From IMG/VR virus record IMGVR_UViG_3300028887_000078: 64,000 bases of DNA; one strand, 5' to 3'. This document shows positions 1,144 through 62,468 of this stretch, in pieces (the first letter of the stretch is position 1; each line of letters starts with the position of its first letter). The notes under the pieces are model-generated. The model saw only the letters and a list, made by a program, of their open reading frames with translations, had not been told where the DNA came from and did not search any database. Position numbers and translations under genes: made by a program. This stretch comes from a virus (taxonomy: Duplodnaviria > Caudoviricetes).

Positions 1144-1251
1144 TGAACGGAAGTAGCAAGACGTTCAAATTATTCAAAAGAAGATATATAGGGATAACTC
1201 CATCTCGGTTCTTGCTACGTTTTATTTACCGAGCGGATGCGTCCCTTTTTT
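1144..1251 (+). ncRNA. Structured 5' leader of tnpB (two hairpins with complementary loops, terminator-like end)
   Basis: TGAACG/CGTTCA stem with loop GTAGCAAGA (1153-1161); CTCGGT/ACCGAG stem with loop TCTTGCTAC (1210-1218); GGGA...TCCC followed by T6. Confidence 0.55.
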
Positions 1252-1258
1252 ATTGACT

Positions 1259-2515
1259 ATGTTGCGAGGAATCAAGGTAAGGTTATATCCCAACAAGGAA
1301 CAGCAGGCAAGACTGAATCAAGTTCTTGGTTGCTATAGATTTGTGTATAACAAGACACTTGAACTCAAACGCAATGTCTATGACGAGGACAAGACCAACC
1401 TCAAACTAACCGACATTTCAAAGTGGTTTCACGGAACGCTGTTAAAAGATGAAAACTATGCTTGGTTGCAGGAACAGAACACAAAGGTGATGAAACAGTC
1501 AATCCGTCAGATGCTTGACGCTTATTCAAACTTCTTCAAACAGCACAAGGGATTCCCGAAGTTCAAGTCAAAGAAGGACAACCAATCGGCATTGTTTCCA
1601 TACGAGGCGATTTCCAAACGCAACACATTCAACGAAAGAAAAATAACTCTCACTAAAGACCTGAAGAACATCCGTTTCAGATGTTCCGACTTGTATTTCA
1701 AGAGACTTCAAGACTACAAAGATTGTATAAGGAGTGCAACCGTTTCGAGAACCAAGAGCGGCAACTACTTCCTTTCAATCCTTGTTGACATCCCGAAGGA
1801 AGAACTTATCAAGTTCAAGCATACCAAGCAGTGTGTCGGAATAGACCTCGGAGTCAAGGATTTTGTAATCACAAGTGACGGCGAGGTCTTTGAAAACAAA
1901 CACTTTTTCAAAAAGCAAGAAAAGAAAGTCAAGCGATTGCAGAAGCAACTGTCAAAGAAAGTAAAAGGTTCACACAACCGAGAGAAACAGCGTGTCAGAA
2001 TTGCAAAGGCGTTTGAACGACTTACCAACCAAAAGGATGCTTATATTCATTCGGTTGTGAATGCTTTGTTGTCTTTGTACGACTTGGTTTGTATAGAGGA
2101 TTTGAATGTGCAGGGAATGGTGAAAAACCACAAATTAGCAAAAGCAATTCAAGAGGTCGGTTTCTACAAGTTCAAGCAGATTTTGCTTGACAAAGCAAGT
2201 GTCAACGGCAAGCAGGTTGTCTTGGTTGACCGTTTCTATCCGAGCAGCAAGACCTGCCACAAGTGCGGATATGTGAAGAAAGATTTGACTTTGAGTGACC
2301 GTGAATGGGTCTGCCCTATTTGCGGTGAGCATCTTGAAAGGGACATAAATGCTGCAATCAACATATTGATTGAAGGATTAAGAATAATAGGTGTCCGTAG
2401 CACCGAATTTACGCTTGCGGAGAACCCAACCGTGGATGACCGTCTGGCAACAGACCTAAAAAGCGGTGGTTCGTTGAAACAAGAAAGAAGGACTAATAAT
2501 TCCAATTTTTATTAA
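1259..2515 (+). CDS. tnpB: TnpB RNA-guided endonuclease (intact RuvC triad)
   Basis: N-terminal KVRLYPN HTH; GIDLG, IEDL, CxxCG-CxxCG zinc finger, RDINAA; ATG 1259 preferred over TTG 1253. Confidence 0.95.
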   Translation: MLRGIKVRLYPNKEQQARLNQVLGCYRFVYNKTLELKRNVYDEDKTNLKLTDISKWFHGTLLKDENYAWLQEQNTKVMKQSIRQMLDAYSNFFKQHKGFPKFKSKKDNQSALFPYEAISKRNTFNERKITLTKDLKNIRFRCSDLYFKRLQDYKDCIRSATVSRTKSGNYFLSILVDIPKEELIKFKHTKQCVGIDLGVKDFVITSDGEVFENKHFFKKQEKKVKRLQKQLSKKVKGSHNREKQRVRIAKAFERLTNQKDAYIHSVVNALLSLYDLVCIEDLNVQGMVKNHKLAKAIQEVGFYKFKQILLDKASVNGKQVVLVDRFYPSSKTCHKCGYVKKDLTLSDREWVCPICGEHLERDINAAINILIEGLRIIGVRSTEFTLAENPTVDDRLATDLKSGGSLKQERRTNNSNFY

Positions 2516-3568: not shown

Positions 3569-5052
3569 CAGAAGTTGTTTATGATATAGTATGCGATTTC
3601 GTGGAGTTCTTCATCTGTGAGTTCCACGATGTTGTCTGTTCCGTATTCTCCGTTGTAGAACACAGGTTCGCCGTTGTCGTCGAGTTTCACGAATGTCACC
3701 ATTCCGTTCTTGAACTTGTGCGGTGTGCCGAGGTTGAGTTGGTAGTCGTAGTCGGAAAGCACGTCGGCAATCATCATTTTGTCCTCAAGTTTCTCCTTTT
3801 CGCCATTGAGCACCTGTTCCGCTATGAACTGCTCTGAAGTGTAAACACTCCCTGCGTTTTCAAGTACGGCGTTTTCCTTTGAAAGCATCGAGAGATAAAG
3901 GTATGCGCATTTGTGGGTGTAGTCCGCTTTCACATATTTGTCTTCGCCGAGCGCCTCTCCTGCGTTTATGTCGACTTTGAAGTCTTCAATCTTTATGCCG
4001 CCGATTGGTTCCCTCACTTGTTCCGCGACGGACTTCATAACACTTTCGTTGTTCACGGTCGCTATCATAACGTCGATTGGGGACGGGAGTGACTTCTTGT
4101 TGTTTATTCCGTCGTATTGCTCGACCATATATGTTGCGAACCTGAAATTCTTGACTTTGTTGTCGTCACCCTCGTTTGCAAATTTGACTGCGTCTTCAAC
4201 GGTTTGTTCAGCACCCGTTTTTTTGTAGAACTCCATCCTTCTTTTGTTGAGTTCGTTTGACACGTCAAGGTTCCCCTCGTCGTCCGCAAGCGCTTTTTCA
4301 AGTTCTCCCTTTCCGATTCCTTCAAGCATTTTCTTTATCGCTTTCGCGGTCAGACCTGCGTCTTTTATGAGTTCGGTCGGTTCCCCGTAGTCGCTTGCAA
4401 GCGCACTGTTTGTTTTTTGCGCCGCTTCGCGTTCCTTTTCCATCGCTTCGAGTCTTTCCTGTTCCTTTTTGTGTTTTTCCTCGTTTTTCTTTTCCTGCTC
4501 TTTTTTTAATTTTTCCTCTTTCAGGAGTTTTGTTGTCTCCTTTCTGATTATTTCGTTGGCAATTATCTTCGACTGTGTAATCATAAGACTTGCCCATTCC
4601 ATAAGCATATTGCTTTTCTTTGCACGGAGGTTTATTTTTTCAATGATGGCGTTGATTTTGTCCATCAGTGCCTTGTCGCCTGTGAGGAACAGCACACCTT
4701 CCTTGTTCGACGCGTTCTTTTTCTCGCCGTTTGTGCTTGCGCCGACTTTTGCGAAGTCCACGTCTTTTGCAAGTGTGTCCTTGTTTTGTTCGTCCACGAT
4801 TCTGACGTCGTCCATATTCTTTGCGACATTGAGTGCGCTTTCAACATAGGTGTTGATGTATTCCACGCACATTTTCTTTATGTCTTTGACGCGTTTCATA
4901 TAACGGACTGATATGAATTTGAAGTAACCTTTCACTTTCGGGGCGTCTTTCACATAGGTCGCAGTCCCGTTGTCGTTCTTCGCTTCCATAAGAAGTTCCT
5001 GCGGCATAAGTTTGTTGAGGCTTTCCTCGATATAGTTTGTGTAATCTGTCAT
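3568..5052 (-). CDS. Late coiled-coil protein, possibly virion-internal
   Basis: 494 aa with a K/E-rich coil; TATAAATA upstream (5074-5081, minus); N-terminal LLME propeptide-like site. Confidence 0.6.
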   Translation of the reverse strand: MTDYTNYIEESLNKLMPQELLMEAKNDNGTATYVKDAPKVKGYFKFISVRYMKRVKDIKKMCVEYINTYVESALNVAKNMDDVRIVDEQNKDTLAKDVDFAKVGASTNGEKKNASNKEGVLFLTGDKALMDKINAIIEKINLRAKKSNMLMEWASLMITQSKIIANEIIRKETTKLLKEEKLKKEQEKKNEEKHKKEQERLEAMEKEREAAQKTNSALASDYGEPTELIKDAGLTAKAIKKMLEGIGKGELEKALADDEGNLDVSNELNKRRMEFYKKTGAEQTVEDAVKFANEGDDNKVKNFRFATYMVEQYDGINNKKSLPSPIDVMIATVNNESVMKSVAEQVREPIGGIKIEDFKVDINAGEALGEDKYVKADYTHKCAYLYLSMLSKENAVLENAGSVYTSEQFIAEQVLNGEKEKLEDKMMIADVLSDYDYQLNLGTPHKFKNGMVTFVKLDDNGEPVFYNGEYGTDNIVELTDEELHEIAYYIINNF

Positions 5053-5083
5053 ATTGGATAAATTTATTCAATATATTTATATG

Positions 5084-5102
5084 AATATATCATTGATATA
5101 TC
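5084..5102. promoter_or_regulatory. GATATATC-N3-GATATATC box, copy 1
   Basis: AATATATC ATT GATATATC between divergent TATAAATA promoters. Confidence 0.7.
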
Positions 5103-5119
5103 GCTTTGCTATAAATAAT

Positions 5120-6403
5120 CGGAATTATCCCTTTAGTCTTGTAAAATGTGAGTAATATAAATATAGTATAGTATTTCAATCAGATGGAGAGGACGTACAC
5201 ATATAAGTTCAGGTTATATCCGAACAAAGAACAAGAGATTTATCTCGTCAATGTGTTTGGATGTTGCAGGCTTGTATATAACCATTTCCTCAATGAAAAG
5301 AAAACCCAATACAATGAATCCAAAACAAGTGATTCGTACAATGTTCAATCAGGTAAATTAACTGAACTTCGTAAAACGAATGAATTTGAGTTCTTGAATG
5401 CTGTTCCTTTGCAGGTATTACAATGCAGTTTGAGGAATATGCACAATGCTTATGACAACTTCTACAAACACAAAAGTTCCTATCCGAAGTTCAAGAACAG
5501 AAGGAACAAACAGTCGTTTAAGTTACCACAAGAACAGTGTTTTAGAATAAAAGATAACAAACTTTACATTCCTAAACTAAAAAGCGGAATTGACATTGTA
5601 ATGGAACGTAAGATTATAGGCAAAATATGCTTTGCCACAATCTCAAAGAATAAGGCGGGCAAATACCACATAGCAATTACTGTTAAACAGGATTACATAC
5701 CTTATGGAAAGACCAACCGTTCTGTCGGTCTTGACCTCGGCATAAAGGATTTCGTCATCACAAGTGACGGGGTTAAATACAAGAACCATAGAAGTATAAT
5801 AAGGACATTAAAACGTAAACTAAAACATAACCAAAGACATCTGTCAAGGAAAGTTTATGGTAGCAAGCGATACGAAAACCAAGTGTTGAAATGCAACCGA
5901 ATCTATCAGAAGATAACAGATGCCAAAACTGACTACATTCATAAGATAACCACAGAACTTGTCAGACACTACGATGTGATAAAGGTTGAAGACCTAAACA
6001 TTAAAGGGATGATGAAGAACCACAAGTTGGCAGAGGCAATATCAGAATGTAATTGGTATCAGTTCATTCAAACTCTTGAATATAAGTGTTTGTGGAATGA
6101 AAAAGAACTTATAAAGATTGACCGTTTCTATCCGTCAAGTCAGATGTGCAGTGAATGTGGTTATGTTGAAAAAAAAGTCAGAAACCTAAATGTGAGGGAA
6201 TGGACTTGCTGTAACTGCGGTTGTCATCACGACCGTGATGTAAATGCAGCAAGAAACATTTTGAAATATAATTCGGCAAGGAATGTCGAAAACAGTCGTG
6301 GAGTTGTATGCAAACTGAATGAAAGAACCAAATCAGTTGGTGATTGTTCGGACAACTGTGAAGCGATTATTGAACTTTTACAAGACTAAAAGGGATAATT
6401 CCG
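5120..6403 (+). mobile_element. tnpB cassette bounded by 27/28-bp terminal inverted repeats
   Basis: CGGAATTATCCCTTTAGTCTTGTAAAA (5120-5146) vs TTTTACAAGACTAAAAGGGATAATTCCG (6376-6403); flanks TAAATAAT / TAAATAAA. Confidence 0.75.
5184..6389 (+). CDS. tnpB: TnpB RNA-guided endonuclease (intact RuvC triad)
   Basis: YKFRLYPN, GLDLG, VEDL, CSECG-CCNCG, RDVNAA; stop codon lies inside the right inverted repeat. Confidence 0.95.
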   Translation: MERTYTYKFRLYPNKEQEIYLVNVFGCCRLVYNHFLNEKKTQYNESKTSDSYNVQSGKLTELRKTNEFEFLNAVPLQVLQCSLRNMHNAYDNFYKHKSSYPKFKNRRNKQSFKLPQEQCFRIKDNKLYIPKLKSGIDIVMERKIIGKICFATISKNKAGKYHIAITVKQDYIPYGKTNRSVGLDLGIKDFVITSDGVKYKNHRSIIRTLKRKLKHNQRHLSRKVYGSKRYENQVLKCNRIYQKITDAKTDYIHKITTELVRHYDVIKVEDLNIKGMMKNHKLAEAISECNWYQFIQTLEYKCLWNEKELIKIDRFYPSSQMCSECGYVEKKVRNLNVREWTCCNCGCHHDRDVNAARNILKYNSARNVENSRGVVCKLNERTKSVGDCSDNCEAIIELLQD

Positions 6404-6429
6404 TAAATAAATATAGCAAAGATTTGATT

Positions 6430-8010
6430 ATGCAACCGACGAAACCTACAGAGAACGGGGTCAAGTACCTTCAATTAACGGACAGCATATTGATGGAATA
6501 TGTGTATGTCTGTGACAGATATGTGTCCAACAGCGGAACGGATTTGGACGGAGACACGCTTGCCGTCGATGAAAACGGCGACTTTATGAACACCTATGGA
6601 CACAGTCCTGTTTCCACATACCGAATCGCAAAGAACGAGTATGTGGACGAATTGTACTTTATGAACGATGAGTTGTCATCGGCACTTACAAACAACAGTA
6701 TGCGGAACACAGTCCTGCCTGTGAGGAAAGACCAAACCAAATGGGTCGCCACCAACAGGGTGAACGGGAAGTATTATTCCAAATACGACACGAAATGGGC
6801 GGACATAGACCCAATTTCAGGTGAAATGAGCATCAACAGGATACCTACCGCGCCGTACGGCGAGTATGTCCCGTATGACATAGTGAGATTCTATTTCCAA
6901 AGTGGGTACCATTCCGAATACGACGGGTTCATATTCAACTTGTACACGAGAAACAGGAACAACGAGTATGTTAACCTTCTCTGTGCTATGCACGAGAACT
7001 ATGGGAACTTCAGGATGCTGTCCGAACCGTTTTGGTTTGCCGACAAACTTTATACAAACTACATAGAGTACAGGGTTCCTTCCACTGCATATCTGTCGTC
7101 CGACGCAATCGGTGGCAACACGCCTTCTATGGAAATGAACAGATGGGGCGGAAGCGGAAATTACGACAAGACGAACCCCGACCCTGAAACACTGCCGTAT
7201 TTTCTTACACACAGCATAGGGTTCTACAACAACCCTGCAATAGGAATTGACCTGCACGCGGTCACAGGTTATGAGATGGACAGGGGGTTCAGGGTTTACA
7301 AGTCTCTTATGCTGACCTCGACGCTGTTTCCCAACAAGGACTCCTATGAAAGACTGATGGCGGTTGCAAGACCCGCGTCCGACGGGGACTACTACAAACT
7401 CTATGCCTATTATGAGAACGACCTGTCGAATCCTATTTACGATGAAATGTCCCTTTATGAATATCTGAAACAATACAGGAACACCTTCACGGTCGTGCAT
7501 ATCATAACTGTCAGCGAAACCTACACGGATGACGCTAACAACACCGTGACCGACACCCAGCCGCCTATGACGTACATACAGTCTTGGGAAAACCTTGAGA
7601 GTATGTACGAGGCGAATGAATCGCCTGAAATCCTTTTCCGACCTGTCCTGAAACACACTTCAAGGATGCTCTCCGACGGGGACGGTGCAAGGATAAGGTA
7701 TGTGGTGCGAATAACCAACGACAGGGACAACACCACGATTATCAAGAACACATCCTGTTCAATCATAAGACCAAGAAGGTTCGGTTTGAATATGGTTAAC
7801 GCAAACATAAACTCTATGAATGATGTGCGGGTTTACAACCGTGTGGAAAGCGGTCCAGTCCTGAACGTGACCACAGTCACCCGCCCGCTCGGTTCTGTTT
7901 CGTCGGAACAGGCGCCTGTGCAGGTGAACACCTATGTGACATCTTCGTTCATAGACAGGAGAAACATAAAAATACGGGTGTCCCCCGTTAGAATAGAGGA
8001 GGTTGAATAA
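6430..8010 (+). CDS. Probable virion structural protein
   Basis: Long Y/T/N-rich ORF; start moved to ATG 6430 because the upstream extension lies in the mobile element. Confidence 0.55.
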   Translation: MQPTKPTENGVKYLQLTDSILMEYVYVCDRYVSNSGTDLDGDTLAVDENGDFMNTYGHSPVSTYRIAKNEYVDELYFMNDELSSALTNNSMRNTVLPVRKDQTKWVATNRVNGKYYSKYDTKWADIDPISGEMSINRIPTAPYGEYVPYDIVRFYFQSGYHSEYDGFIFNLYTRNRNNEYVNLLCAMHENYGNFRMLSEPFWFADKLYTNYIEYRVPSTAYLSSDAIGGNTPSMEMNRWGGSGNYDKTNPDPETLPYFLTHSIGFYNNPAIGIDLHAVTGYEMDRGFRVYKSLMLTSTLFPNKDSYERLMAVARPASDGDYYKLYAYYENDLSNPIYDEMSLYEYLKQYRNTFTVVHIITVSETYTDDANNTVTDTQPPMTYIQSWENLESMYEANESPEILFRPVLKHTSRMLSDGDGARIRYVVRITNDRDNTTIIKNTSCSIIRPRRFGLNMVNANINSMNDVRVYNRVESGPVLNVTTVTRPLGSVSSEQAPVQVNTYVTSSFIDRRNIKIRVSPVRIEEVE

Positions 8011-60186: not shown

Positions 60187-60367
60187 AAGATTCAGCATTT
60201 CAAGGTTGAATATGAAATGAAACAATTATAAATAAAATGTAGGTGTGGGACGCACCGAATTTAAGCGTGTGGAGATGCGGGAAATAATTTTGAACGCTAT
60301 AAAGCATCCAAAACAATCAGCATCGTTGAATCACGAAGATTCCACCTTTAGGGTGGAAACAGTTCAC
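60173..60367 (+). mobile_element. ORF-less IS200/IS605-type miniature element carrying a late promoter and an omegaRNA
   Basis: Target TTAC (60169-60172); AAAG followed by left hairpin ATTCAGC/GTTGAAT; right hairpin TTCCACC/GGTGGAA ending GTTCAC. Confidence 0.75.
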
Positions 60368-61794: not shown

Positions 61795-61859
61795 GTTTGG
61801 AATTATCCATTTTGGTATTGTTGCATCAAATCAAAAAATATCAATGGAATGGATGTCTG

Positions 61860-62366
61860 TTAATTTTCCGATACTTCAAATGTTTCTTGCAAATAATCAC
61901 CAACTATAATTTCATTGTTTGAAATGACATTTATGATGTTGTCAACATCATTTGTGAATGCTGTACAAACCGTTTCGATTTTTTCTAAATCTGAAATGTT
62001 TTCTTTTTTGAATTTTTCTGCGGTAATTCTTTTTATCATTTCAGATTCATTATAATCATAATCGGATATAAGCATCCTTTTCAATGTTTTTTCTTTGCTG
62101 ATATTGTCTTTAATATCAAGGAATTTCAAATTGTCTATACTTGCTTTTAATTCATTTATCCAATGTGTAAAATTTATATTTGTGCAGTCAAATAATTGAC
62201 AGTATTTACACAAACACCAATTTTCAACAAGTTGAAAACGTAGTCCATCTACACGTTCTTTGTATTTTTTCAATGGAACTGCCATTTCATATATCATTCC
62301 AATGCGGTTAATCGTATCGGATACGGACTCATTTGTCATTTCAGAAACCTTTTTAATGTGCGGCAT
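61860..62366 (-). CDS. AT-rich helical protein (weak DUF29-like) with propeptide-like leader
   Basis: MPHIKKVSEMTNES; QLVENW...HW..EL. Confidence 0.55.
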   Translation of the reverse strand: MPHIKKVSEMTNESVSDTINRIGMIYEMAVPLKKYKERVDGLRFQLVENWCLCKYCQLFDCTNINFTHWINELKASIDNLKFLDIKDNISKEKTLKRMLISDYDYNESEMIKRITAEKFKKENISDLEKIETVCTAFTNDVDNIINVISNNEIIVGDYLQETFEVSEN

Positions 62367-62468
62367 AGCATTATTTTTATATCTCTTTATTGAATATAAT
62401 AAAAATCTTGCAAAAATACGCTTTTTGCAAGATTAAAGGTACAATTCCGTTTTTTTTTGTTTTCTGTA

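Follow-up and report, generated by a model that had tools for sequence, protein, structure and literature searches.

Elements of the IS605 and IS607 types have no inverted repeats and make no target duplications, and TnpB is thought to persist in them by repairing their scarless excision; the rarity of TnpB in DDE transposons was argued to speak for that view (PMC13565253). Six DDE-associated TnpB branches (DDE-1 to DDE-6), all with inverted terminal repeats, are described in the accessible text of Altae-Tran et al. (2023, PNAS, PMC10691335), together with solo TnpBs that have the same ends as transposase-bearing elements and are mobilized in trans. The DDE partner families of TnpB that the accessible text of these sources names are IS630 (PMC10691335) and ISL2 and IS1031 (review, PMC13565253), and IS1595 is absent from the main text of PMC10691335. 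In the parts of the IS1595 literature that are accessible, the duplication length of this family is given as 8 bp (PMC8101967) and its elements are said to carry passenger genes commonly (Siguier, Gagnevin and Chandler, 2009, as cited in PMC8101967 and PMC11891212). It was also shown that guide RNAs of Fanzor incorporate the inverted repeat and bases of the target duplication (Yoon et al., 2023, NAR, PMC10711439). Here we analyzed a 64-kb stretch of a large gut/rumen phage (IMG/VR record IMGVR_UViG_3300028887_000078; hereafter the window, with positions counted from its first letter), and within it a unit of 1,284 bp at 5120-6403 whose sole open reading frame (ORF) is tnpB.

Based on its ends and its relatives, this unit is very probably a non-autonomous DDE cassette of the IS1595 family, which lacks a transposase and has tnpB and a remodelled omegaRNA as its only cargo. 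Since its own transposase is absent, it should be regarded as a cassette or a miniature-type derivative and not as an insertion sequence proper. It resembles the DDE-associated and solo TnpB systems, as far as these are described in the accessible text of PMC10691335, in having inverted repeats, a tnpB 3' end within 250 bp of the element end, and ends in common with transposase-bearing elements. It differs from the systems described there in its IS1595 partner, in being phage-borne, in the phage-type box ahead of the gene, in the demonstrable loss of both IS605 hairpins and in the existence of omegaRNA-only mini-elements. The features of the locus are as follows:

5104-5113, unstranded: left arm of a palindrome in the target DNA, CTTTGCTATA (10 bp), 100% complementary to 6412-6421.
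5112-5119, unstranded: left copy of the target-site duplication, TAAATAAT, a 7/8 match to 6404-6411.
5120-5146, plus strand: left terminal inverted repeat, CGGAATTATCCCTTTAGTCTTGTAAAA, an IS1595-family end; the same end bounds the DDE-encoding loci L176 and L211.
5155-5165, plus strand: promoter-like box ATATAAATATA within the cassette, 29 nt before the tnpB ATG and kept in 6/6 copies.
5184-6389, plus strand: tnpB, 401 aa, intact and ISDra2-like, with three TnpB Pfam domains, the RuvC D-E-D triad and a zinc finger.
6272-6403, plus strand: omegaRNA-like scaffold, with helices at 6272-6368 and, after them, a conserved single-stranded stretch, a linker of variable length and the right repeat.
6376-6403, minus strand: right terminal inverted repeat, the inverse of the left one plus one extra base, which holds the tnpB stop and last codons.
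6404-6411, unstranded: right copy of the target-site duplication, TAAATAAA, which would provide the first guide bases.
6405-6415, plus strand: promoter-like box AAATAAATATA ahead of the next gene (526 aa, ATG at 6430), intact after the insertion.
6412-6421, unstranded: right arm of the target-DNA palindrome, TATAGCAAAG, which pairs with the left arm.

An earlier, sequence-only reading of this DNA had described tnpB as lying between near-perfect terminal inverted repeats, flanked by a near-8-bp target duplication, with the stop codon and an omegaRNA-like tail running into the right repeat. This description held: the repeats differ by the one extra base, TAAATAAT and TAAATAAA agree at seven of eight positions, and the right repeat contains the stop codon (6387-6389), 14 nt from its tip, as well as the proposed end of the scaffold. 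At the other side, there are only 37 nt between the left repeat and the ATG. For the left repeat as a 27-mer, 0 chance matches are expected in the window, and no other match was found there. Six tnpB cassettes, which occupy different and unrelated sites, can be aligned over the whole unit with 84% column identity, and their similarity ends exactly at the CGG and CCG tips; the mobile unit thus extends from repeat tip to repeat tip. The palindromic target site, which had also been pointed out, is real, and none of the other copies is flanked by its outer arms, which are therefore target DNA and not part of the element. The proposal that the repeats could instead be read as a ~43-bp imperfect terminal inverted repeat was rejected for this reason, the outer arms being peculiar to the insertion site of the window. 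Three tnpB cassettes that share one 192-kb contig (L004, L005 and L006) have imperfect target duplications, with 2-6/8 matches, which could mean that copies in the same phage genome have recombined or that these insertions are older.

The ends of the cassette can be followed into a larger family. The 15-nt tip of the repeat was scanned in public viral contigs, where inverted pairs lie 327 to 2,957 bp apart, and the inner part of the repeat was found at 20 viral and 67 genomic loci. The genomic loci belong nearly all to rumen or horse-gut Bacteroidales genomes, several of which hold multiple copies. With fuzzy pairing, about 40 paired elements have these ends, 14 of them with perfect 8-bp duplications and nine with duplications at 7/8. 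The preferred target is symmetric, with eight A/T-rich bases between YA and TR and an A at -1 in 34/46 cases, and the 26-bp consensus of the end is CGGAATTATCCCTTTTAGTCTTGTAA. Three loci connect this end with a transposase. L176 (3092-5487) matches the consensus at 26/26 positions on both ends and has the duplication TTTTTTTA; in L160 the ends (26/26 and 24/26) delimit the whole contig of 2,687 bp; and L211 (820-4207; 3,388 bp) has ends at 25-26/26 and the duplication ATTTTAAA. Each of L176, L160 and L211 encodes a DDE_Tnp_IS1595 protein of 310-314 aa (E 4e-34, 7e-33 and 1.7e-34, respectively), and the zinc ribbon was matched in the first two; the L160 transposase is 85% identical to that of L176 and the L211 transposase 95% identical to that of L160. 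L211 is located on the same 388-kb phage contig (IMGVR_UViG_3300031998_000001) as the tnpB cassette L002, whose TnpB is 86% identical to the one in the window. More distant variants of the end also flank IS1595 transposases (L061 and L088).

These loci answer what the sequence-only reading had asked of the ends: other copies of the repeat exist in number, a cognate DDE transposase was found with the same ends, and the suspected kinship to the IS1595 family is supported. As the unit is bounded from tip to tip by ends that it has in common with autonomous IS1595 elements, the idea of a TnpB module captured by a DDE-transposon cassette is supported. The tip CGGAATT resembles CGGnnTT, which we take to be the ISNha5-type end of the family. 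The likeness to IS1595 insertion sequences thus includes inverted ends and 8-bp duplications, with the zinc ribbon and DDE_Tnp_IS1595 domains in the autonomous relatives; the unit in the window differs from them in having no transposase and in its passenger, an RNA-guided nuclease whose scaffold overlaps the right end. In the proposed mechanism, an IS1595 transposase supplied by the host or by a phage would move the cassette in trans.

Other members of the family carry phosphoribosyltransferase-like, P-loop or unknown proteins as cargo or are empty (78-141 bp). The autonomous elements L211, L176 and L160 have one to three passenger ORFs of unknown function beside the transposase (in L211, of 286, 158 and 229 aa). 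Two transposase-less elements, L080 (3409-4441) and L177 (1276-2066), carry a Pribosyltran protein (E 2e-9 and 6e-9); a viral contig harbours one of these elements and a Bacteroidales genome the other. The window itself holds a second, older IS1595-type cassette of 652 bp at 61798-62449, with diverged ends (TGGAATTATCCATTT... and CGGAATTGTACCTTT...) and a T-run as target; it contains a 168-aa ORF (61860-62366, minus strand) with the box ATATAAAAATA 16 nt upstream.

The nuclease gene was called intact in the sequence-only reading, and the protein comparisons agree. The 401-aa ORF matches the three TnpB Pfam domains (HTH, OrfB_IS605 and zinc-ribbon; E 1e-24, 9e-21 and 5e-18), and its residues 3-361 align with ISDra2 TnpB (E 6e-74) with the catalytic D-E-D residues and the zinc finger in register; the motifs GLDLG, VEDLN, HDRD and CxxC...CxxC were all found. 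Between copies, the ratio of nonsynonymous to synonymous divergence (dN/dS) over the TnpB core is 0.05-0.08 at a dS of 0.8-2.2, which indicates that selection acted while the gene was located in its IS1595 context. Judged from these alignments, TnpB is under strong purifying selection and its predicted catalytic triad is intact. The seven repeat-borne TnpBs form one clade (support 100/100), and their sister group (91/82) consists of viral TnpBs that are ~50% identical to them. Both repeat tips are seen in six of the seven members, and L003 shows only the right repeat in the retrieved locus. More distant tnpB loci (L007-L046) have only 9-12-nt A/T-rich inverted matches, which we took as chance. 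The host genomes with IS1595 ends contain no TnpB match, and among 401 Bacteroidales genomes five have TnpB matches, all at no more than 48% identity.

The sister clade makes it possible to see what the capture has removed. Its members at ~50% identity (L007-L019) are conventional elements, in which the left-end hairpin matches the right-end hairpin, and their omegaRNA has five helices, 16 covarying pairs and the terminus ...GUAGUUCAU exactly where the flanks diverge. A covariance model built from this omegaRNA can be aligned with confidence to the cassettes up to ...UGAAGCGACUAU and no further; nothing in them corresponds to the two final hairpins and the terminus of the conventional type. 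An IS605-type hairpin was also not found at the left end of the cassette, where the DNA fold has only -1.2 kcal/mol (z +0.85). The cassette thus does not show the traits of conventional IS200/IS605 elements, which are subterminal hairpins with neither repeats nor a duplication. The sequence-only reading had likewise seen no IS605 hairpin ends, and a search for conventional ends inside the repeats of homologous loci found none in this clade; only the sister clade has them. From this comparison of ends and RNAs it follows that the captured DNA begins ~40 nt ahead of the ATG and includes about the first two-thirds of the omegaRNA, and that both IS605 ends were replaced by IS1595 ends. The comparison shows that the repeat-borne tnpB lineage descends from IS605-type elements and has lost both end hairpins and the last two omegaRNA hairpins. 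With ISDra2 and the IS1341-type elements that contain only tnpB, the cassette still has in common the TnpB alignment, the first three omegaRNA helices and the CGUGGAG and GAAGCG motifs; it differs from them by its missing end hairpins and by its inverted repeats and duplication, and, against the IS1341-type elements, by a linker and an IS1595 end where those elements have two more omegaRNA hairpins and the GUAGUUCAU terminus.

What remains of the omegaRNA structure is under selection as well. In the scaffold helices 96-98% of the alignment cells are paired, with 10-13 covarying pairs that include double changes, whereas slid controls reach at most 51%. In the tail of the gene, which begins at codon 355, dS is only 0.09-0.33 and dN/dS reaches about 1-2, the signature of an overlapping RNA constraint. 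The helices are followed by an invariant GAAGCGAYUAUUGAACUU, a linker of 2, 8 or 17 nt and then the right repeat. The helix-1 loop GGAA (6280-6283) is complementary to UUCC (6399-6402), which lies one base before the repeat tip (97% of cells); its counterpart in the conventional clade is a helix-1 loop GAAC that can pair with a GUUC located two bases ahead of the guide (97% of cells). This pairing fits a repeat tip that took over the strand of the pseudoknot, a change that would resemble the uptake of repeat and duplication bases by Fanzor RNAs (PMC10711439); the pairing alone is weak evidence. In the proposed mechanism the right repeat would form the 3' end of the omegaRNA scaffold, and UUCC of its tip would pair with the helix-1 loop as GUUC did in the ancestor. 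If the right repeat is the 3' end of the scaffold, the guide would be read from the flank, namely from the target duplication and the bases beyond it. The start of the guide most likely lies in the flank, and we lean, with some reserve, towards this model, with the guide from about 6404. With such a guide, TnpB could cleave sites that lack the insertion, such as those of co-infecting phages, which would help the cassette to be retained or to home.

One competing explanation accepts the same architecture and regards the omegaRNA as crippled, so that TnpB needs omegaRNAs in trans, such as the one at 60234-60367, or it regards TnpB as ordinary phage cargo that is unrelated to the upkeep of the cassette. 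Several observations agree with it. The conventional covariance model stays unaligned over the last ~55 positions and the linker varies in length; at 60234-60367 there is an omegaRNA-like element that has no gene but is complete, including a proper ...CAGUUCAC end; other cassettes of the family carry unrelated accessory genes; and tnpB has a phage-type promoter box. Yet the scaffold, the invariant single strand and the junction with the repeat are kept across about 25% protein divergence, and the same parts are kept in omegaRNA-only mini-elements, a persistence that is not expected of a dead RNA. The suppression of synonymous changes reaches the repeat, and the complementarity between loop and tip is maintained. 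We therefore regard this explanation as unlikely and prefer the cassette with a remodelled omegaRNA.

Some points weigh against the cassette that we propose and against its flank-derived guide. There is no match to an IS1595 transposase within the window, and the left repeat of the window copy is one T short of the consensus, so that this copy may be a poor substrate for the transposase. An empty or tnpB-less site for the insertion, for which CTTTGCTATAAATAAWTATAGCAAAG is the target sequence as expected without the insert, was not found, and direct patterns for the empty site had no match in metagenome or viral contigs. In the RNA, the linker of 2, 8 or 17 nt is unusually variable for a segment adjoining a guide, unless a hairpin of differing length is formed by it. 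No compensatory double changes were seen in the pseudoknot or in its conventional counterpart, the mini-element L094 has a mismatch in the pseudoknot, and 4-bp complementarity has a random chance of roughly 5%. No significant one-sided motif resembling a target-adjacent motif (TAM) was detected beyond the YA/TR preference of the transposase: YA is present in 8/8 of the left flanks and 3/8 of the right ones, and the oriented sites are too few to separate this from the transposase preference.

Another explanation is that an ordinary element of the IS605 or IS607 type is nested in an older miniature element of the IS1595 family, or in a palindrome, and still depends on its own ends for movement. 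As a historical origin such nesting is plausible, and tnpB-less miniature elements with the same ends exist. As an account of how the present unit moves it is highly improbable: the left repeat and the ATG are only 37 nt apart, and the stop is located inside the right repeat; the hairpins of both ends are gone; and the boundaries of the clade are at the repeat tips (both tips in six members and the right one in L003). In addition, no member of the clade was found outside the repeats, and the 401 Bacteroidales genomes hold no TnpB above 48% identity. That the inverted repeats are a chance occurrence or a native regulatory palindrome of the phage, to which the palindromic target site in a promoter-like region might point, has a negligible probability, given the absence of expected chance matches for the 27-mer and the presence of the same 26-bp end, with 8-bp duplications, around dozens of unrelated insertions and around transposase genes.

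The insertion site is located in what looks like a promoter region. In the window, 17 copies of the box ATATAAATATA were counted where 0.56 would be expected, and they usually start about 28-38 nt before start codons; copies are found, for example, at 5072-5082 (minus strand), 13539, 27841, 32421 (minus strand) and 51802. From its distribution it is probably a promoter element of this phage group, and tnpB would be transcribed from the copy within the cassette. A wider form of the box, TTTGNTATAAATA, is not enriched in the window. The cassette was inserted at the 5' edge of a ATATAAATATA-type box and spared the right-side copy. The suggestion that it had landed in a late promoter has to be adjusted: the insertion is at the edge of a putative phage promoter, late or otherwise, and did not disrupt the box.

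In two relatives at 50-53% identity that were found by a profile scan (L198 and L199), the orthologous genes have the same box upstream, and neither offers a true empty site. A single-protein scan found no relatives of the 526-aa gene in viral or metagenome contigs, and the 494-aa gene has relatives at only 39-57% identity, without synteny. Two neighbour proteins, P0001 and P0002, are 100% and 88% identical, respectively, and P0001 is encoded by two contigs. The phage database gave no DNA match to the region in the near or the distant mode, and no Rfam family matches 5000-6600.

The window contains a second tnpB at 1253-2515 (plus strand), which shares 40% identity with the first and 74% with L025. 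Its omegaRNA-like tail differs from that of the first gene, and its surroundings show no convincing inverted repeats; a sequence that resembles the repeat tip, TGGAGTTATCCCTAT, is present just upstream of it, at 1188-1202 (minus strand). The gene-less element at 60234-60367 (plus strand) is of the conventional type (covariance model E about 1e-3), with a helix-1 loop GGGAC, the motif CGUGUGGAG, a terminal hairpin and the end ...CAGUUCAC. It is intergenic, ahead of a baseplate-like gene, and the 16 nt that follow it have no second match in the window.

Some elements without tnpB were also found that combine the ends of the cassette with the omegaRNA-like module. L094 (6894-7220; 327 bp) and L219 (316-644; 329 bp, duplication 7/8) are complete in this sense, and L218, L220 and L221 hold the same module with less complete boundaries; these mini-elements contribute further compensatory base-pair changes. 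Four mini-elements lie in one 413-kb phage (IMGVR_UViG_3300031994_000001, rated 100% complete), whose best TnpB match to the cassette clade is only 42%. They may be guide-only elements that need TnpB in trans, or they may merely be successful deletion derivatives. One speculative option, which we consider rather improbable, is that the IS1595 ends serve as a delivery vehicle for guide RNAs, that is, a guide array dispersed by transposition and used in phage competition or homing. Since the ~330-bp mini-elements keep the scaffold under structural selection and end in the same right repeat, each insertion would then create a new guide derived from its flank. If this is true, TnpB for such guides would be supplied in trans by a cassette in the same or a co-infecting phage.

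The general arrangement, TnpB within a DDE transposon, was published in 2023, while the IS1595 partner and the mini-derivatives that contain only the guide RNA do not appear in the accessible part of the literature. The closest eukaryotic and viral parallel that we compared is Fanzor/Fanzor2* (PMC10711439), in which a TnpB-type nuclease was also captured by a cut-and-paste transposon with inverted repeats and duplications; the cassette described here differs in being prokaryotic and phage-borne and in its compact, ISDra2-like protein, and its scaffold is predicted from the sequence. In this family, a TnpB clade has clearly been re-housed in a DDE transposon and held there under strong selection, and the junctions of the capture can be read base by base against the conventional sister clade. 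The transposon end appears to replace the guide-proximal part of the omegaRNA. With these features and with the guide-RNA-only derivatives, the cassettes offer a compact test case for how scaffold and guide are demarcated anew after capture, which is the same question that is raised by the eukaryotic Fanzors, and they allow a test of whether phages use them for homing or competition.

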